Shown here one piece after another: positions 24,743 to 64,000 of a stretch of DNA of 64,000 nucleotides. The notes beneath the pieces are model-generated. The model made no database searches. It had not been told where the DNA came from and saw only the letters and a list, made by a program, of their open reading frames with translations. The number at the start of each line of letters is the position of its first letter. Within the stretch, counting starts at the first letter, position 1. The translations under genes were made by a program, and so were the position numbers. The stretch is from an uncultured Chloroflexia bacterium (GTDB lineage Bacteria; Chloroflexota; Limnocylindria; Limnocylindrales; CSP1-4), in NCBI GenBank assembly GCA_963757865.1, contig CAVWSU010000004.1, forward strand, positions 23,474 to 87,473. Direction: 5' to 3'.

Positions 24743-25480
24743 TCACTTCCACTCGATCGTGACGACATCGATCGGTTCGGCCAGACCTTTGAGCTGGAGC
24801 GACCGTGGATTCGAGGTCACGAAGTGTGACCCCTCCACCGTGACGCGGCTGGCGATGATCTCGCCGCTGTCGGCGGCCGAGCCGATGCGCGCTGCCTCGT
24901 GGACACCCTTGCCGTGGTAGTTCTGGCCGACCTGCTGGGCGTTCGCGAGGTGGATGCCGATCCGGATCTGCGGCGCGAACCCGGAGGTCCGGCGGTGATC
25001 CGCGAGCGTCCGTTGAATGGCCACGGCGCAGGCCAGCGCATCGTCCGGTGCGTCGAAGCCGACGAAGAAGCCGTCTCCCGTCGAGACGACCTCCTGACCG
25101 TGGTGCGTCGCGAACTGGCCCCGCAGGGTCTCGTCGTGCCACTGGAGCAGGGTCTGCCAGGCATCGTCACCGAGGGCGACGGCGAGGTTGGTCGAGCCGA
25201 CCATGTCGGTGAACATGAACGTCTTGACGACGCGGCGCGTCGCGGCCGCCCGGCCACGCTGGGCCCACGGCAGGACGTCTCCGACCTCCTCGAGCTCGAT
25301 AGCCATGGTCGGGCAGGCGCTCGCCGCCTCCCTGAGCATCTCCTCGTCGACACTGTCCGCCGCAAGGACGTCGGCCTTGAACAGGTCGCCCTTGAGCCAA
25401 TCGAAGACGGTCGGCGCGATGGCCATGCAGTTGCCGGCGCCGATGCATCGCGGGCGATCGATCCGGACCTGCAGCGTCAC
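24743..25480 (-). CDS. Fusion: [3Fe-4S]-type ferredoxin domain + class III adenylate/guanylate cyclase catalytic domain
   Basis: N-terminal VRIDRPRCIGAGNCMAIAPTVFD ... ASACPTMAIELEE is a C-x5-C ... CP single-cluster ferredoxin pattern. C-terminal cyclase motifs are KTFMFTDMVGSTNL, STGDGFFVGFD, IRIGIHLA and GKGVHEAARI. The GTG start overlaps the stop of the upstream regulator (GTGA at 25477-25480). Confidence 0.85.
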   Translation of the reverse strand: MTLQVRIDRPRCIGAGNCMAIAPTVFDWLKGDLFKADVLAADSVDEEMLREAASACPTMAIELEEVGDVLPWAQRGRAAATRRVVKTFMFTDMVGSTNLAVALGDDAWQTLLQWHDETLRGQFATHHGQEVVSTGDGFFVGFDAPDDALACAVAIQRTLADHRRTSGFAPQIRIGIHLANAQQVGQNYHGKGVHEAARIGSAADSGEIIASRVTVEGSHFVTSNPRSLQLKGLAEPIDVVTIEWK

Positions 25481-56845: not shown

Positions 56846-57485
56846 CCGGCGTGCCGCCAGGTTCGGCCGTCTCGGTTCCGGAATCGACGGGCTCGCCGAT
56901 TGCGGCGTCCCACGGACCGAGCAGCACCTCGAGTGCGGCGGGCTCGAGGAGGTCCGCGAGGACGGTGGCGGCCACGGCGTCGAGCACCGCGGGAAATGCC
57001 TCGCGCCGGATACCGGCCCAGTCCCGCGTGTGACCGGAAGCCCCCTCCGAGCCCCACAGGTCCGACGAGCCGGACTCCTCGTTGAGCCAGCGCATCGCCT
57101 CCGTCTGGGCCGCCCGGGCGGCCGACCGCCTGCCGCTCCGCTGCGCGGTCGCCTGTGCCGCCGCGTGTGCATCCGCGCGCTCCGCCGCCGGGATGGCCGA
57201 CCAGAAGCTGATGAGCCGCTCCGCCTGCTCGGGACCGAGCGCACCGACGCGGCCGAGGAGCTCGAGCACCGCATCGCTGTTCCGGCCGAACGGCAGGCCC
57301 TGCCCGCGAGCCACGAGGTGTGCCGCGCGATCGAGCGAGCGCGCCACGACATTGGGGCGCGCGACCCCGCCCTGAAGGCTGTTCGGCTGGATCGGACGGC
57401 GGGGCACGGACGCTCCTTCGCTGGGCCGGCGCGGCACCGCCGATCGGGATCGAGACCACGTGCGACCGGGTCCGCGGGGCGCCAT
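56790..57485 (-). CDS. Hypothetical helical protein downstream of the hydrogenase operon
   Basis: Best codon bias of three overlapping minus-strand ORFs (LELLGRVGALGPEQAERLISFWSAIPAAERADAHAAA ... AMRWLNEESGSSDLW). The likely start is an internal GTG at 57344. Confidence 0.4.
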   Translation of the reverse strand: MAPRGPGRTWSRSRSAVPRRPSEGASVPRRPIQPNSLQGGVARPNVVARSLDRAAHLVARGQGLPFGRNSDAVLELLGRVGALGPEQAERLISFWSAIPAAERADAHAAAQATAQRSGRRSAARAAQTEAMRWLNEESGSSDLWGSEGASGHTRDWAGIRREAFPAVLDAVAATVLADLLEPAALEVLLGPWDAAIGEPVDSGTETAEPGGTPARRAGPEAGGASDEPGRA

Positions 57486-57605
57486 TGTCGCGGATACGGG
57501 CAGACGTCATCGGGGCACGTGCATGAACGGATTGCGGGCCGGCCGGCATCTTCGGCACCGCCCGGCCACTTCGGCACCGCCCGGCCCTTCGGCGCCGCCG
57601 CGCGA

Positions 57606-58142
57606 TCAGTCCCTGGCGAGCCGAACCGCCTCCTCGAGCGCGGCCGCGGCCAGCGCCGGGATCGCCTCGTGCACGGGGCTCGACACGGGGTCGCCCAGCC
57701 CGAACGCCGATCCGCCCAGACCGACGAACGTGCCTCGAGGCAGCGAGCCGCGCAGCGTCTGCACCAGCCCGAGCACGTCGCGCAGTGGCAGCATGTGCGA
57801 CGAGCGAGGCGCCGGGCCTCCCGAGGTCAGGTCGGCCAGTGCCCGGCGGACGAGCGTTCCGGGCTCTGGGCCGCTCACGGCGTCGATCACCACCAGGGCA
57901 TCGTCGGGGTCGAGCGCCAGCAGTTCGTCCGGTTCCAGCTGCCCGACGGACTGCACGTCCGCGCGCCCGCGGAGCGCCTCGACGGCGTCCACCAGGGCCG
58001 GCGGCGGCGGTTCCACGCCATCGAGCCAGGCGCGCAGGAGGTCGGCGGCGAGGAATCCGGCCGCGTCGTCGCCCCGCGCCGACTCGCCGCAGGCGAGCAC
58101 GCGGATGCGGCGAGCGGTGCTATCGCTTCCGGGCTGCGCCAT
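57606..58142 (-). CDS. Hydrogenase maturation endopeptidase (HyaD/HybD/FrhD family)
   Basis: RVLACGESARGDDAAG (metal-binding Asp region), VVIDAV, SSHMLPL. Confidence 0.85.
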   Translation of the reverse strand: MAQPGSDSTARRIRVLACGESARGDDAAGFLAADLLRAWLDGVEPPPPALVDAVEALRGRADVQSVGQLEPDELLALDPDDALVVIDAVSGPEPGTLVRRALADLTSGGPAPRSSHMLPLRDVLGLVQTLRGSLPRGTFVGLGGSAFGLGDPVSSPVHEAIPALAAAALEEAVRLARD

Positions 58143-58160
58143 GGCCGGGGAGGACCGCGG

Positions 58161-59474
58161 TCACGCCCCCTCGACGGTCAGGTCGAGGAAGTGGGTGGCG
58201 CAGGAGATGCACGGGTCGTAGCTGCGGATCAGCTGCTCCAGCCGCCGGGTCGCCTCGGCGTGCTCGAGTTCGAGGATCGACGGCGCGAAGTCGCGCAGGT
58301 CCGCCTCGATCTGCCCCTGGTTCTGGCTCGTGGGTGGAACGATCTGGGCGTGGGTGACCATGCCCGCGGCATCCGTCTCCCAGTGATGCCAGCAGATGCC
58401 GCGAGGCGCCTCCGAGCCCCATCCCGCGGCGCCTGCCCGCGGCGTCCACGGCTCGAACGGCCGCTTCGGCGGCTCGTAGGCGTCGAGGATGTCGATGGCC
58501 TCGGCGCAGTAGTGGATCAGCTCCACGCCGCGTGCCGCGATGCTCCAGAACGGGTTGCGGGCGATCTGCGCGGCGAGCCCGGTCCGCTCGAGCGCCTCGC
58601 GGGCGATCGGGTGCAGCTGGTCCGCCGCGATCGTGACGCGCGCGGACGGGCCGAGCTGGTACGTCTCGCCGGTCGCCGTCCGGGCGTGCAGCGCGTTCGT
58701 GCCCTCGTGGTGCTCCTCGTGGAACACCGTGCGCCAGTCGCCGATGCCGATGTCGATCGACCCGTCGTGGGACACGATGCGCCCGTCGAACAGCGGGTAC
58801 TCGGTGGGGTGCTTCAGCGACACGAGGCGGACGTCGCGCTCGAACGGCGGCGCCTGGAACTCGGCCACGAAGTCGAGAGTGGCCTTCGCCTGCTCGAGCG
58901 CCCTGACGAGCGCGGGCCGCATCGCCATCAGCTCGGCGCGGGGCGGAACCCGGTAGAGGCCGCCGATCCGGACGTTCACGGGGTGGATGGCGCGACCGCC
59001 CACGACCGCCATCAGGTCGTTGCCGACCTTCTTGAGGGCAAGTCCCTGCTCCACGACCGCGCGATGGTCCTTCGCGAGGTCGATCGCGCTCGCGTAGCCC
59101 AGGAAGTCGGGCGCATGCAGGAGGTAGACGTGCAGCGCGTGGCTCTCGATGTACTCGCCGGCGTAGAGCAGACGGCGGAGGGCCCGCACCTGGGGATCGA
59201 TCTGGACCCCGAAGATCGACTCGAAGGCGCCCGCGGCGCTCATCTGGTACGCCTCGGGGCAGATGCCGCAGATGCGCGCCACGATGTCCAGGACCTGGTC
59301 CGGATGACGCCCCACGACGAGCTGCTCGAAGTAGCGGGGCGCCTCGAAGATCTTGAGGCGCGCCTCGGTCACGGCGCCGTCGCGCACGACCAGGTGCAGC
59401 GAGCCTTCGCCCTCGACCCGGGTGATCCCCTCCACGCGAAAGGATCGCTCGAAGGGCGGTGCGTCGGTGGTCAT
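58161..59474 (-). CDS. hyhL: [NiFe]-hydrogenase large subunit, group 3b (alpha)
   Basis: ATG 59474 after gggaggga. N-terminal Ni-binding RICGICP and C-terminal DPCISCATH. 437 aa. Operon partners are diagnostic of group 3b. Confidence 0.92.
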   Translation of the reverse strand: MTTDAPPFERSFRVEGITRVEGEGSLHLVVRDGAVTEARLKIFEAPRYFEQLVVGRHPDQVLDIVARICGICPEAYQMSAAGAFESIFGVQIDPQVRALRRLLYAGEYIESHALHVYLLHAPDFLGYASAIDLAKDHRAVVEQGLALKKVGNDLMAVVGGRAIHPVNVRIGGLYRVPPRAELMAMRPALVRALEQAKATLDFVAEFQAPPFERDVRLVSLKHPTEYPLFDGRIVSHDGSIDIGIGDWRTVFHEEHHEGTNALHARTATGETYQLGPSARVTIAADQLHPIAREALERTGLAAQIARNPFWSIAARGVELIHYCAEAIDILDAYEPPKRPFEPWTPRAGAAGWGSEAPRGICWHHWETDAAGMVTHAQIVPPTSQNQGQIEADLRDFAPSILELEHAEATRRLEQLIRSYDPCISCATHFLDLTVEGA

Positions 59475-60334
59475 CACTTCCCTCCCGAGCGCGCGGTCGC
59501 GCTGGTCGCGGCTGGCGGCTTGTCGCCGGCGGGAGCCGTGCCCGGCACCCCGCCAAGCTCGGTGATCACGTCGCGGAACGGCTCGGCGTAGCCCGTGAAG
59601 CCGGCGAAGAGCCGGCCGGCCTCGGTCGGGGCCATGCCCTTCCAGATGAAGGCGCGGCTGAGGCTGGACGCGTTGGCCTGCTCCCGCGGACCGAAGCAGC
59701 CGTAGCAGCCGCGGTCGAACCCCGGGCACAGCGCGCCGCAGCCGGTCATCGTCACCGGGCCCAGGCACGGAATGCCCCTGGCGACCATCACGCAGACACG
59801 GCCGGCCCGTTTGCAGGCCGCGCAGACCGCCTCGTCCGGGAGGTTGGCACGACGCCCGGTCAGGAGCGCCGTGACGAACTCGACGAGCTGCTCGGCATTG
59901 ATGGGGCAGCCGCGAAGCTCGGCATCGACCTTGACGTAGTCCGCGACCGGCTGGGCCGTCGCGAGCGAGTCGATGTATTCCGGGTGGGCGTACACCGCGG
60001 CCCTGAACGCGTCGTGGTCCCGCCAGTTGCGCATCGCCTGGATCCCGCCCGCGGTCGCGCAGGCCCCGATCGTGACCAGGAGCTTGGCCTCCCGCCGGAT
60101 CTCGTGGATCTGCTCCAGCTGCTCGGGCGTGCTGACGGCGCCCTCGACGAGGACCACGTCGTACGGGCCGCTCGAGCGATGCGTCGTCGCCTCGGGGAAC
60201 TCGACGATGTCGATCCGCTCGGCGATCGCGAGCAGCTCGTCCTCGAGGTCGAGCAGCATCAGCTGGCACCCGTCGCACGACGCGAGCTTGACGACGCCGA
60301 GCCGGGGGCGCGGCGTGGTGGCGGCGCGGCCCAT
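59474..60334 (-). CDS. hyhS: [NiFe]-hydrogenase small subunit, group 3b (delta)
   Basis: VVKLASCDGCQ, TIGACATAGGIQ, GCPI, CAACKRAGRVCV, CLGPVTMTGCGALCP. Start and stop both overlap the neighbouring genes. Confidence 0.92.
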   Translation of the reverse strand: MGRAATTPRPRLGVVKLASCDGCQLMLLDLEDELLAIAERIDIVEFPEATTHRSSGPYDVVLVEGAVSTPEQLEQIHEIRREAKLLVTIGACATAGGIQAMRNWRDHDAFRAAVYAHPEYIDSLATAQPVADYVKVDAELRGCPINAEQLVEFVTALLTGRRANLPDEAVCAACKRAGRVCVMVARGIPCLGPVTMTGCGALCPGFDRGCYGCFGPREQANASSLSRAFIWKGMAPTEAGRLFAGFTGYAEPFRDVITELGGVPGTAPAGDKPPAATSATARSGGK

Positions 60335-62299
60335 CAGATGCCCTCCCGTCCGAACACGTCGCCGAGCTGCGCGAGCGAGAAGACGGGTCCGTCCTTGCAC
60401 ACGAAGTACGGTCCCACCTGGCAGTGCCCGCAGAGTCCGACGCCGCATTCCATGTGGCGTTCCATCGAGATGTAGATGCGGTCCGGCGTGACGCCGTGCG
60501 CCGCCAGCGTGTTGACGGTGGCCTGGATCATGCGCTCGGGTCCGCACACGAAGGCGATCGCCTTCGTCCCGTCCCAGCGCGCGTGGTCGAACAGGTGGGT
60601 CACGATGCCCACCCGGCCGAGCCAGGTCGCATCCGCGCGATCGACCGTCACGCCCACGTCGAGGTCACCCCTGGCGGCCCAGGCCGCGAGCTCCTCGGTG
60701 TAGAGCAGGTCTCCGGGGGTCCGGGCCCCGTGGTAGATGCGCACCTCGCCGTACTTCGAGCGGTGCTCGACGATCTCGTCGATCACGGGCCGGAGCGGTG
60801 GCAGTCCCATGCCCACCGCCGACGATCACGACATCGTGATCTTCGGCGACCTCGACGGGCCAGCCATGGCCCAGGGGGGCAGAGAGCCCGACTTCGGCGC
60901 CGCGCTCGAGCCCGGTCAGGATGGTGCTCGCCGGACCGACCCCCCGGATCGTGAGTTCCATGCCCTCGGGCAGCCGCCGGGAGATGGAGATGGGCACCGA
61001 ACCCACCGCGGGCACGGATGCCATCACGAACTCGCCGTGGGTCTTCGACCAGTCGATGCCGCCGGGCGTCGCCAGCGAGAGCGTGACGGTGTCGTGGGTC
61101 TCGTTCCGGGCGGCCTCCACCCGGAACACGCTGGTCTTTGGCGAGTGCGCCTCGGCCGCGTGGCCGTCACCGGCCGCGACCTGCGGCGGCGGGGCGATGA
61201 TGTTGAGCTCCTCGCGGACATCGATCCCGACGGGGCACCACGTGATGCAGCGACCGCAGCCCACGCACCCGGAGGTCCCGAACTGGTCGATCCAGGTGGC
61301 GAACTTGTGGGTGAGCCATTGCCGGTAGCGGTCCTGTACGCGCGGGCGGAAGTTGCCGCCCAGGGCGACCGCGGAGAAGCCCTTCGTGAAGCACGATTCC
61401 CAGCGCCGCTCGGTGACCGCGTTGTGGCCGTCGAGGTCGGAGCGCTGGCTGACGCTCGTGCAGAAGCACGTCGGGCACGAGGCCGTGCAGTTCGTGCAGG
61501 CCAGGCACCGCTCGGCGATCTGGGCCCAGCGGGGGCTGTCGAGCTTCGCCATCAGCCGGTCGTGCAGGCCGGCCGTGACCACGGGATCCCCGATCCGCTC
61601 GCGGGCGGAGGCGAGCTGATCCGCGCCTGCGCCGATCTGGTCGGCGCTCGCGTCCTCGAGATCCAGCCGGTCGAAGATGGCCGACCCGGACGGAGACCCG
61701 GCCGTCACGACGAAGCCGTCCTCGAGTTCGATGAGCGAGAGGTCGTGGCCGCTGCGGACGCCGGGTCCGGTGCCCATCGACGTGCAGAAGCAGGTTCCGC
61801 CGGGCTCCGCGCACTGGACCGCCACGACGAGCGAATGCGTGCGCCGTGCTCGGTAATCCTCGTCCGTGTACGGGCCACCGAGGAACACGCGGTCCTCGAT
61901 GCCCAGCGCCGCGAGCTCGCAGGCGCGCACGCCGAGGAACGCGAGCTTCGGGATCTCCTTGTCGACGGGCCCGAAGGACACGTGTCCCTGCTCGTCCCTG
62001 TGGGACTGGCTCACGCCGAGAGTCGGTGGGAACACGAAGCGCTTCCACGAGGTGGGGCCGACCGCGTATGCGAAGTAGCGGTCGTCCCTGTGCTCCACCA
62101 GCCGGTACGAGCCGGGGGCCTGCTCCGCGCCGACGCCCCTGGGAAGGTCCTCGACCGCGTGGACCTCGCCGTAGACGATCGCGCCGTCCGACACGGTCGG
62201 CCCGATCACGGTGCGGCCGTCCTCGGCCAGCAGGTCGATGAGTCGCTGGAAACCGGCGCGGGGCAGGAAACCGATCGCGCTCCTGGTCACGGTGGTCAT
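60334..62299 (-). CDS. Group 3b hydrogenase beta (4Fe-4S, AsrA-like) and gamma (FAD/NAD(P)/2Fe-2S, AsrB-like) modules in one reading frame; +1 frameshift at 60811
   Basis: Beta module: FLGVRACE, GGTCFCTSMG, CLACTNCTASCPTCFC, CVGCGRCITWCP. With no stop it continues into gamma: FRVEAARNETHDTVTLSL ... VVIVGGG. The frame then breaks (ORF 60665..62299). ORF 60334..60816 resumes as MGLPPLRPVIDEIV ... CGVGLCGHCQVGP. Confidence 0.85.
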
Positions 62300-62308
62300 G
62301 TCGTTCCG

Positions 62309-62803
62309 CTACTTCGCGAAGAGGTCGAGCATCTGCAGCCGCGTCGCGCTCAGCCGGCGCGCCATCGCCTGGAGGACACGCGGGTAGAGCTCGGCGGCCA
62401 GGTCGTGGTCGGCGGCGAGGGCGGCCCGGAGACCCGGCCCGTCGAGCGCCAGCACGTCGACCGACTGCAGCGCCACGACTGTCGATGTCGAGCGGTAGGG
62501 GGAGACGAGCGACGACTGGCCGAAGATGTCGCCGGGTTCGACCGTCAGGATCGTGATCCAGCCTTCCTCGGGCACGAGGGTCCGCAGCGAGACGCGGCCC
62601 GACAGCACGATGCCCAGCTCGTTGGTCAGCTGGCCCTCGGTGAGCAGGGTCGTTCCGGCCGTCGCCTGGTAGCGGCGTGCGAGACCCGCAAGGCGCACCT
62701 GCGTATCGGGGGGCAGGTTCGCGCCGAACCACGTCGCGTTCAGCGACGCGACGAGCGAGGCGGTATCGTCGTTCCGGGGCACGGAGCCCTCGGTCTGAGG
62801 CAT
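62309..62803 (-). CDS. Stand-alone cyclic-nucleotide-binding domain protein (no HTH)
   Basis: ATG 62803 after ggagga. LLTEGQLTNELGIVLSGRVSL ... VEPGDIFGQSSLVSPYRSTSTVVA is a phosphate-binding-cassette-like FG-x ... R-S/T-x. The stop lies 9 nt before the hydrogenase beta start. Confidence 0.8.
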   Translation of the reverse strand: MPQTEGSVPRNDDTASLVASLNATWFGANLPPDTQVRLAGLARRYQATAGTTLLTEGQLTNELGIVLSGRVSLRTLVPEEGWITILTVEPGDIFGQSSLVSPYRSTSTVVALQSVDVLALDGPGLRAALAADHDLAAELYPRVLQAMARRLSATRLQMLDLFAK

Positions 62804-63176
62804 GCGGTCGTCCTCCAAGGGGGGGCAGGCGGGACACACGGCTGCAGCCATATGGGACCATCCGGCCGGGTGGCGACGACAGGGCCTGCGGTCACGCGAA
62901 CGCGGTCCGTCCGACCCGCGATGAGCTCCCCGCGAGAGCAGGCGGAGTGCACGAGACCCCGGGTGCACCTCGCCACCGGCGGTTGGGCCGCAGCCGGGAT
63001 CGCGTGGCCGACGGGGCACAGCACCTCCTGTCCGTGTCCCATCCGTGACGTCCGCGTGGCTACCATGGCGACGTGACCGCCGTGCATGGCATATCCGGCA
63101 ATCAGCATCCCCACCCCGGCGCGCCGGGCCCGGGGACCGGGCCGAGCGGTCGCTGGCGGCAGCCGTGTCGGCCGGC

Positions 63177-63668
63177 GTGAACCGAGGCGTTCCGCGCAGG
63201 TGGTTGCTCGGCCCAACTGCGCGGGCCATTGCCTACGGGATCGTGGGATCTGCGATGGAGAGCGCGTTCACGTCTGTTCGGCTGTCGCGAGGGTCCGGAT
63301 CGCTGAGGGCGTCGGGACCGGCGACGCCCTGGATGCTCCCGATCTACGCGCTGGCGCTGCCGTTGTTCGAGCCCGTTCACGATCGCCTGCGCGACCGGCC
63401 GGCGTGGGCGCGCGCGATCGCGTACGCGGCGGGGATCATGGCGGTCGAGGGAGGCACGGGCTGGATGCTGCGCCGCCAAACCGGTCGATGCCCGTGGGAC
63501 TACACCGGGCGGACGCGATGGCACGTCTCGGGGCTCGTCCGGCTGGACTACGGGCCGCTCTGGGCGCTCGCGGGACTGGGGGCGGAACGCCTGCACGATG
63601 CGATGACCGGCGCGGCCGGCGCCGCATGCGCTACAATCGGCCGCCGTGGGCCGGTAGCTCAACGGTAG
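63177..63668 (+). CDS. Small membrane protein, possibly DUF1113 / putative ABC-transporter type IV family
   Basis: IAYGIVGSAMESAFT ... PWMLPIYALALPLFEP ... CPWDYTG ... RLDYGPLWALAG. The start is tentative (GTG 63177 or TTG 63204). The 3' end overlaps tRNA-Lys by about 20 nt. Confidence 0.4.
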   Translation: MNRGVPRRWLLGPTARAIAYGIVGSAMESAFTSVRLSRGSGSLRASGPATPWMLPIYALALPLFEPVHDRLRDRPAWARAIAYAAGIMAVEGGTGWMLRRQTGRCPWDYTGRTRWHVSGLVRLDYGPLWALAGLGAERLHDAMTGAAGAACATIGRRGPVAQR

Positions 63669-63722
63669 AGCAGCTGCCTCTTAAGCAGCGGGTTGAGAGT
63701 TCGAGTCTCTCCCGGCTCACCA
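63648..63722 (+). tRNA. tRNA-Lys (anticodon CTT)
   Basis: GGGCCGGTAGCTCAACGGTAGAGCAGCTGCCTCTTAAGCAGCGGGTTGAGAGTTCGAGTCTCTCCCGGCTCACCA. The cloverleaf folds by hand, the anticodon loop is CTCTTAA, and CCA is encoded. Confidence 0.93.
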
Positions 63723-63857
63723 CGGTTTTCGCACGGACTGATGCGCGCGTTGGCCCGACAAGGATCGATAGGCCCAAAGGGCCGTCCGATGCCAGAAGTC
63801 CTCGATGTGCCACTCGATGCCACGTACTCGTCGCGTAGAACCCCTCAGGAGGATCGC

Positions 63858-64000
63858 GTGAGCGCCGCGGCATCCCTTCTCGTCGGGACGGCGGTCGAGT
63901 TCACGTGGACCGGAGTCCGCGAGGTCGGCGGCTTCGCTGACATCCGGCCGCCTGCGCCCAATGGCCTCGGCGTTGTGACGAAGGGTATCGTCCAGCTCGT
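63858..64000 (+). CDS. Possible 5' end of a CDS running out of the window; product unknown
   Basis: GTG 63858 lies 4 nt after aggagga. Frame reads VSAAASLLVGTAVEFTWTGVREVGGFADIRPPAPNGLGVVTKGIVQL with mostly G/C third positions. No homology recognised. Confidence 0.25.
   Translation, partial: MSAAASLLVGTAVEFTWTGVREVGGFADIRPPAPNGLGVVTKGIVQL

Follow-up and report, generated by a model that had tools for sequence, protein, structure and literature searches.

A HoxI-like cyclic-nucleotide-binding-fold protein as a candidate accessory subunit of a group 3b [NiFe]-hydrogenase in a Limnocylindria genome

The soluble NAD+-reducing [NiFe]-hydrogenase of Cupriavidus necator (Ralstonia eutropha) H16 carries an additional protein, HoxI, with a cyclic-nucleotide-binding (CNB) domain, which forms the HoxHYFUI2 complex and comes off the enzyme at high ionic strength (PMC3189943). 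It is a regulatory dimer according to PMC12809855. NADPH-dependent activation has been attributed to this loosely bound, dimeric subunit (PMC3189943, PMC12809855, PMC12319191), and a passage of PMC12319191, citing Burgdorf 2005, states that it is thought to bind NADPH. CNB genes in the clusters of a different class of enzyme, the group 3b hydrogenases, have already been noticed in print, in passing as annotation. One is listed for Rhodococcus equi by annotation only (PMC13332983), and that of a methanotroph cluster is simply named HoxI (PMC12319191). No functional study of a group 3b CNB gene was found in the literature searched. Here, we describe such a gene in 64,000 nucleotides (nt) of DNA from an uncultured Chloroflexia bacterium of the Limnocylindrales (GenBank assembly GCA_963757865.1, contig CAVWSU010000004.1, positions 23,474 to 87,473). 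This whole stretch is called the window below, and positions are those of the window unless a locus is named. On its minus strand, from 62803 to 57606, five closely spaced genes encode a stand-alone CNB-fold protein, a fused beta-gamma subunit, the delta and alpha subunits, and a maturation protease, in that order.

Group 3b hydrogenases occur widely among the bacteria of soils and sediments and are thought either to discard excess reductant as H2 in hypoxia or to feed electrons from H2 to NAD(P). Models of them are based on the four-subunit systems of Pyrococcus and Mycobacterium smegmatis. The comparisons reported here suggest, with a probability that we put at roughly 55%, that the CNB protein of the window is a noncatalytic accessory or regulatory subunit of the hydrogenase encoded beside it and is HoxI-like in role.

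Conserved neighborhood of the CNB gene

A word-indexed search returned 198 homologues of the CNB protein with lengths of 154 to 194 amino acids (aa), and a profile search covering 1.84 billion representatives returned 2990 cluster representatives at an E value of ≤1e-10. In the close subfamily, every genomic context viewed had the gene order of the window. This order was seen at two loci whose CNB proteins are 84 to 85% identical to that of the window (L002 and L003) and at three with CNB proteins 53 to 55% identical (L008, L010, and L011), where the CNB gene and the beta-gamma gene overlap by 7 nt. Plasmids of Burkholderia thailandensis and Rhodococcus qingshengii have unfused beta and gamma genes, with the family gene placed between the two and overlapping each of them. 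At L023, the family gene is convergent.

Linkage to the enzyme was quantified in two phyla. Among 301 Chloroflexota genomes, 43 were counted as carriers of the enzyme, defined by a HyhL at least 45% identical to that of the window. The family gene lies on the same strand as hyhL and 1.6 to 3.1 kb away from it in 33 carriers. It comes first, 2.8 to 3.1 kb from hyhL, in 19 of these and sits between the beta and gamma genes, at about 1.65 kb, in the other 14. One further carrier has the gene in convergent orientation 0.5 kb off. Five carriers, which are all five genomes of one genus in the same family, keep the CNB, beta-gamma, and delta genes together while the alpha and protease genes are found at another locus, on a different contig (seen at L016 [G178:C6], L017 [G178:C4], and L018 [G151:C3]). 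In two carriers, both with fragmented assemblies, the family gene is on another contig, and in two it was not found. Among 301 Actinomycetota genomes, 25 carried the enzyme, and 11 of these had the beta-CNB-gamma spacing, with one more being ambiguous. The family gene thus stands beside group 3b genes in 39 of the 43 Chloroflexota carriers and 11 of the 25 Actinomycetota carriers. A first-pass annotation of the window had named a lack of synteny with hydrogenase genes elsewhere as a result that would count against a link to the enzyme, and these numbers show the opposite.

The association extends to more distant enzymes. Where the alpha subunit is only 38 to 39% identical to that of the window, the family gene comes just after the alpha gene (L019 and L020). 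The first of these loci also holds a paralogue (9209 to 9688 of L019; G025:C5), with HdrC-like (Fer4_8) and HdrB-like (CCG) genes on one flank and, on the other, a gene for a flavo-Fe-S NAD(P)H oxidoreductase of at least 755 aa (Pyr_redox_2/Fer4_20). This context suggests that the family accompanies NAD(P)H-linked Fe-S flavoenzymes generally, not hydrogenases alone. Because the gene has been kept beside the enzyme genes despite at least four gene orders and the relocation of the alpha gene, functional coupling is strongly argued. Taken together with its retention beside the beta-gamma and delta genes when the alpha gene moves, this suggests that its partner is the module that reacts with NAD(P)H.

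Fold, ligand pocket, and role of the CNB protein

The CNB protein matches PF00027 with 49.1 bits against a Pfam cutoff of 27.5, and no helix-turn-helix (HTH) family in Pfam or NCBIfam matched any part of its 164 aa. An AlphaFold2 model built from a 55-sequence alignment (mean predicted local distance difference test score of 91.3) has a CNB beta-barrel and, after it, a C-terminal helix of 30 residues. Foldseek assigned it a probability of 1.00 to 3gyd, 3mdp, GlxR, CRP, and PKG; by structure and sequence, the best matches in the PDB were 3gyd and 3mdp (root mean square deviation of 1.5), followed by GlxR and the CRP of Mycobacterium tuberculosis. The window protein has both motifs of its family, G-[WQ]-S...P-[YH]-R-x-T-[SA]-S and, near the C terminus, RRL-x-A-T-R-L-Q-L-L-D-L. 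The latter lies in the C-terminal helix (residues 133 to 163), where RRL.ATRLQ.LDL is invariant (R149, R150, L151, T154, R155, Q157, L159, D160, and L161). In the alignment with CRP, RRL..T......LDLFA corresponds to RRLQVTSEKVGNLAFLDV, and the C terminus of the protein coincides with the start of the CRP hinge that leads to the DNA-binding domain (ARRLSATRLQMLDLFAK aligned to ARRLQVTSEKVGNLAFLDV of CRP). The protein is therefore a CRP-type effector domain with its dimerization helix and without an HTH, in agreement with the first-pass annotation, which had found no DNA-binding domain. Given the beta-barrel and the long C-terminal helix, it is probably dimeric. It contains no Cys and a single, nonconserved His, which rules out FNR- or CooA-like sensing through an Fe-S cluster or heme.

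The first-pass annotation had gone further and suggested cyclic AMP (cAMP)-dependent control of H2 metabolism, with the nucleotide linked to an Fe-S cyclase encoded at 24743 to 25480 of the window. In this scheme, the CNB protein would be a cAMP or cyclic GMP (cGMP) receptor subunit that toggles the hydrogenase, the nucleotide being supplied by a cyclase of the genome, perhaps the Fe-S enzyme encoded 37 kb from it. The protein does have a genuine CNB fold, and the genome offers a supply of cyclases, with 12 matches to PF00211. The phosphate-binding cassette (PBC; residues G91 to A111, GDIFGQSSLVSPYRSTSTVVA) was aligned to those of CRP and GlxR, and it lacks the canonical set of contacts (Gly-Glu and Arg-Ser/Thr). 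The position of CRP Glu72, which contacts the ribose 2'-OH, is Gln96 in the window protein. The resulting FGQ represents the same Glu-to-Gln change as in Epac, which tolerates it. Among 55 close homologues, however, the residue here is most often Trp (41), followed by Gln (10), Lys (2), and Glu and Val (1 each). In an alignment anchored on strand beta-7, the position of the phosphate-contacting Arg82 of CRP is Ser105 (Ser or Ala in the family), and an Arg, Arg104, stands one residue earlier. Arg104 is present in 54 of the 55 close homologues, but it is lost in the genus with the split operon (where it is Ser), in the post-alpha member at L019, and in the Rhodococcus and Streptomyces members, and 3mdp, the nearest solved relative, has neither residue. 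The equivalents of CRP R123 and T127, R150 and T154, are invariant in the family, as a cAMP receptor would have it.

The proposed source of the nucleotide fares no better. The genome has nine PF00027 matches besides its 12 cyclase domains, and nothing among them pairs this CNB protein with the Fe-S cyclase, so a specific pairing of the two was dropped. With a noncanonical pocket and no specific tie to a cyclase, the idea that cAMP controls H2 metabolism is, in our view, unsupported, and a cAMP or cGMP receptor subunit is unlikely. Canonical binding of cAMP or cGMP by the family is doubtful from its residues, and the ligand of the window protein is probably not one of these nucleotides bound in the canonical way. 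An adenine-containing ligand is possible. The HoxI precedent and the conserved equivalents of CRP R123 and T127 make an adenine redox nucleotide of the NADPH/NADP+ type our leading guess.

For the accessory-subunit reading, we propose the following. The CNB protein, which belongs to a conserved family of CRP-type effector domains that lack an HTH, would dock on the beta-gamma module, the AsrA/AsrB-like, flavin- and Fe-S-containing part that reacts with NAD(P)H, by analogy with the HoxI dimer of C. necator. The activity or activation of the enzyme would then be modulated in response to a small ligand. This proposal rests on the fold, the lack of an HTH, a neighborhood conserved in three phyla despite a shuffled gene order, translational coupling, and retention with the beta-gamma and delta genes. 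From these we infer that the protein binds the enzyme physically and that a small ligand modulates the enzyme.

Several observations weigh against such a role. Kinship to HoxI is not close. BLASTP between the two proteins gives an E value of 0.22, and the family profile scores HoxI at 31.6 bits versus 70 for an unrelated paralogue in this genome and 94 for the Rhodococcus and Burkholderia members. These two comparisons rule out orthology with HoxI. Nor is the gene universal, being absent from 13 of the 25 Actinomycetota carriers. These match the gene content of Hyd3 of M. smegmatis, whose annotation lists the beta, gamma, delta, alpha, and protease genes and no others (PMC2799521). One member of the family, on a plasmid of Streptomyces sp. 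SAT1 (L014, 6980 to 7432), is an orphan with no hydrogenase nearby. A CNB gene is also not known for the group 3b enzymes of Pyrococcus, which work as four-subunit enzymes. Finally, no genuine fusion of the CNB domain to a beta or gamma subunit was found among the representatives covered by the profile search.

Two apparent proteins with cNMP (cyclic-nucleotide-binding) and Fer4_22 domains (P0136 and P0211) proved to be error-laden gene calls, with drifting frames and Arg/Pro-rich junk. They illustrate how easily frameshift-laden assemblies of this high-GC clade mimic domain fusions. In seven other genomes the CNB gene is surrounded by long open frames, which are not fusions either, since the CNB and beta sequences are in different frames.

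The orphan bears on a second explanation, in which the protein is a free-standing regulator, a truncated CRP/FNR sensor that heterodimerizes through its C-terminal helix with a full-length CRP/FNR protein or another partner and thereby adjusts how strongly the operon, or a hypoxia regulon, is transcribed. The protein does end exactly at the CRP hinge, and members are found in islands of hypoxia type that lack a hydrogenase. The Streptomyces island, with genes for a universal stress protein, CBS, PNPOx, and Zn-ADH proteins, and a GAF-histidine kinase/response regulator, looks to be of the hypoxia/dormancy type, and DosS/DosR-like genes are found near the operons of L010 and L011. Against such a regulator, the gene is repeatedly interposed between structural genes, its start and stop codons overlapping theirs, and it stays with the beta-gamma and delta genes in split operons. 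An interposed, overlapping, and coretained gene is typical of a stoichiometric complex partner, not of a trans-acting regulator, and we consider the free-standing regulator quite unlikely.

The tight linkage to the beta-gamma gene would also suit an assembly or maturation factor, which would assist flavin or Fe-S insertion or subunit docking and be absent from the mature enzyme. To our knowledge, however, all CNB folds characterized so far act as ligand sensors, and with no Cys and one His, the protein has no apparent features for handling metals or clusters. Moreover, group 3b enzymes without the gene mature normally, as in M. smegmatis (PMC2799521). We therefore hold a maturation factor to be very unlikely.

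The accessory-subunit reading retains part of what the first-pass annotation had offered, a regulatory subunit or a partner-switching adaptor under cAMP control. A subunit-like or regulatory partner is backed by the conserved synteny, and the cAMP control is given up. The annotation had set its idea of a regulatory subunit against the separate regulators known for these enzymes and did not mention HoxI, the known precedent. A broader version is more speculative, and we offer it tentatively: many bacterial group 3b enzymes might be five-component enzymes that have independently recruited a dimeric pseudo-cyclic-nucleotide receptor onto the beta-gamma module. There, it would gate the enzyme allosterically in response to an adenine-containing redox metabolite (NADPH/NADP+ or the like), and the paralogues might act in the same way on Hdr-type and other NAD(P)H-linked flavo-Fe-S oxidoreductases.

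Operon layout, transcription, and reading frame

The features of the operon are collected in Table 1. The genes were found where the first-pass annotation had placed them and on the same strand, and the GGAGGA ribosome-binding site and the 9-nt gap that it had described can be read in the sequence. The stop codon of the CNB gene is the TAG at 62311 to 62309, 9 nt before the hyhBG ATG at 62299. The 164-aa start of the CNB protein was preferred to a 306-aa open reading frame (ORF) because the homologues share its N terminus and have similar lengths (160 to 175 aa).

Table 1. Features of the group 3b hydrogenase operon in the window
Feature	Position	Strand	Description and basis
Conserved upstream element	62842..62917	-	Alignment of 4 genus-level relatives
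GGAGGA ribosome-binding site	62811..62816	-	7 nt before the CNB ATG at 62803; read from sequence
Stand-alone CNB-fold protein, candidate HoxI-like "fifth gene" of the group 3b operon	62309..62803	-	164 aa; PF00027 (E = 5.6e-13) as the sole domain
hyhBG, fused beta (AsrA-like, Fer4_22) and gamma (AsrB-like FAD/NAD and 2Fe-2S)	60334..62299	-	Pfam, NCBIfam; frame broken in the assembly
hyhS (delta), small subunit	59474..60334	-	286 aa; PF01058 (6e-25); ShyD (1.2e-47); TGATG overlap with hyhBG
hyhL (alpha), [NiFe] large subunit	58161..59465	-	434 aa; PF00374; ShyA (2.2e-71), HydA (9.1e-66); TGATG overlap with delta
Hydrogenase maturation endopeptidase	57606..58142	-	178 aa; TIGR00072 (2.7e-17); PF01750; 18-nt gap after alpha

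The alpha subunit carries RICGIC and DPCISCATH, the N- and C-terminal CxxC ligands of the Ni-Fe site, and its ShyA and HydA matches are far stronger than those to VhuA (7e-38) and FrhA (3e-36). In the beta-gamma protein, Pfam finds Fer4_22 (2.4e-30), NAD_binding_1 (1.1e-14), and DHODB_Fe-S_bind (8.9e-11) domains, and NCBIfam finds HydB (9.5e-45) together with HydG, AsrA, and AsrB. The top NCBIfam matches for all four structural modules are thus subunits of the Pyrococcus sulfhydrogenase, which places the enzyme, on sequence grounds, in group 3b of the [NiFe]-hydrogenases (HyhBGSL/sulfhydrogenase type). This assignment had already been made in the first pass. The window has a G+C content of 72%, and its nearest relatives are metagenome-assembled genomes of "Candidatus Limnocylindria"/Chloroflexota.

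The first-pass annotation had presented the beta-gamma, delta, alpha, and protease genes as a tightly coupled series. Their order stands, but the frame of the beta-gamma gene is broken by one extra G that had escaped notice. The hyhBG span is 1966 nt long (3n + 1) and is read as ORFs of 544 and 160 aa, while the relatives have an intact beta-gamma protein of 654 to 680 aa. Alignment to the two closest genomes (L002 and L003), each with an intact 654-aa ORF and without the additional base, located the surplus G within ggcggtgggc of the minus strand (60820 to 60811). Four public DNA runs (X1 to X4) cover the site with contigs, two of them about 99% identical to the window, and the base is missing from all of these as well. 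Because the base is missing in relatives and in four independent runs, an assembly error or a strain-private indel was preferred, and a programmed frameshift or a pseudogene was dropped. A second 1-nt difference lies in noncoding DNA directly upstream of the ribosome-binding site, where the window has a run of seven C residues (62819 to 62825) and contigs of runs X2, X4, and X21 have one base fewer. The extra G and the extra C are probably a pair of homopolymer assembly errors.

RNA data were available as assembled contigs of RNA libraries, in which carryover of DNA is possible. In a sediment metatranscriptome, the CNB gene (62613 to 62820, with 0 differences) is matched by a near-identical contig, as are the alpha, delta, and gamma genes by others. 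A second run yielded a 796-nt contig covering 62039 to 62835, which is about 94% identical to the window (45 differences) and comes from a close relative, not the same strain. It contains the whole CNB gene and, across the junction, 260 nt of hyhBG. These contigs are what cotranscription of the two genes predicts. Termination between the CNB gene and the beta gene, which the first-pass annotation had held out as an argument against its proposal, finds no support in a contig that spans the junction, even if that contig is from a relative and may reflect DNA carryover. The tight coupling that it had described is likewise seen in the short gap and in the lack of any terminator-like site there or elsewhere in the operon. 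The latter comes from scans of 57000 to 64000 for sigma-70 promoters and intrinsic terminators, which returned nothing and are uninformative for a Chloroflexota genome of 72% G+C. hyhBG has no strong Shine-Dalgarno sequence of its own.

Upstream of the CNB gene, a near-invariant block of 36 to 41 nt (GGGTCGGACGGACCGCGTTCGCGTGACCGCAGGCCCTGTCG, 62917 to 62877) and a CCCATAT-containing block (62863 to 62842) are kept in the four genus-level relatives, and the remainder of the intergenic region cannot be aligned. The RNA contigs end at 62820 and 62835, 17 to 32 nt upstream of the ATG and just downstream of the CCCATAT box. The element may be a promoter or operator. It has no Rfam match, the block has no second copy in the genome, no DosR-like palindrome was apparent in it by eye, and its consensus fold, from four sequences only, is unconvincing. 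A known RNA or the operator of a regulon was set aside on the absence of an Rfam match, the uniqueness of the element in the genome, and the unconvincing fold. On the far side of the element, a divergent ORF resembling a membrane protein gene (63045 to 63668, plus strand) runs into the start of a tRNA-Lys(CTT) gene (63648 to 63722).

The genome encodes a second [NiFe] large subunit elsewhere, which is HoxH-like and 39% identical to HoxH of C. necator (C19:739143-740570). A hypF-hypC-hypD-hypE cluster is found on another contig (C13:105866-110836). The hypD match comes in two pieces, which could reflect a further indel.

Comparison with known systems

The window protein is an uncharacterized member of a kind known through HoxI, and the layout with the CNB gene first and a fused beta-gamma gene is typical of the Limnocylindria. 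The operon is ordinary for its clade, and for the window the result is mostly tidy annotation. The interest lies in the CNB family as a whole, which merits biochemical study. A conserved sensor-fold partner is encoded in most of the Chloroflexota operons that were sampled and in roughly half of the actinobacterial ones. If its product binds the enzyme, a direct posttranslational control of group 3b hydrogenases has been overlooked so far. Like HoxI in the Cupriavidus enzyme, the protein would then also offer a means to engineer cofactor specificity or activation.

Among solved structures, the best relative by sequence is 3mdp (profile E = 3.9e-17), which is Gmet_1532 of Geobacter metallireducens, a "putative cyclic nucleotide-binding protein." Its fold superimposes on that of the window protein with a root mean square deviation of 1.5 Å over 133 columns, and the two share PG.IFG.SSL..PY..TS. 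It is a structural-genomics entry of 142 aa in which the family Arg is missing (PYHYTSS). 3gyd is also a CNB protein from structural genomics. The CRP/FNR factors (CRP of Escherichia coli and M. tuberculosis and GlxR of Corynebacterium glutamicum) have the same effector fold and C-terminal helix, and the equivalents of R123 and T127 are kept in the window protein. Unlike these factors, it has no DNA-binding domain, and its PBC Glu and Arg positions are noncanonical.

The CNB genes of Rhodococcus (R. equi and R. qingshengii), B. thailandensis, and "Methylocystis/Methylocapsa acidophilus" 29 belong to the same family and accompany the same enzyme, with profile scores of about 94 bits and shared PPYR and C-terminal motifs. 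They lie between separate beta and gamma genes, whereas in the window the CNB gene leads an operon with a fused beta-gamma gene. The PBC residue that is Gln in the window protein is Trp, Ala, or Val in theirs.

HoxI itself (L015:14836-15339, 167 aa) is, like the window protein, a single CNB domain of about 18 kDa without an HTH, and its gene likewise belongs to the operon of a cytosolic [NiFe]-hydrogenase linked to pyridine nucleotides. The cyclic-nucleotide signature is incomplete in HoxI as well, which keeps the Gly-Glu and has His at the Arg position. The differences lie in the enzyme, the gene order, and the motifs. The HoxI enzyme belongs to group 3d and has the HoxFU diaphorase, whereas that of the window belongs to group 3b and has an AsrA/AsrB-like beta-gamma subunit. 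hoxI is the last gene, after the protease gene hoxW, whereas the CNB gene of the window is the first. HoxI also lacks the GWS...PYR.TS and RRL.ATRLQLLDL motifs of the window family. Judged by these comparisons, the window protein resembles HoxI in role and is not its close relative.

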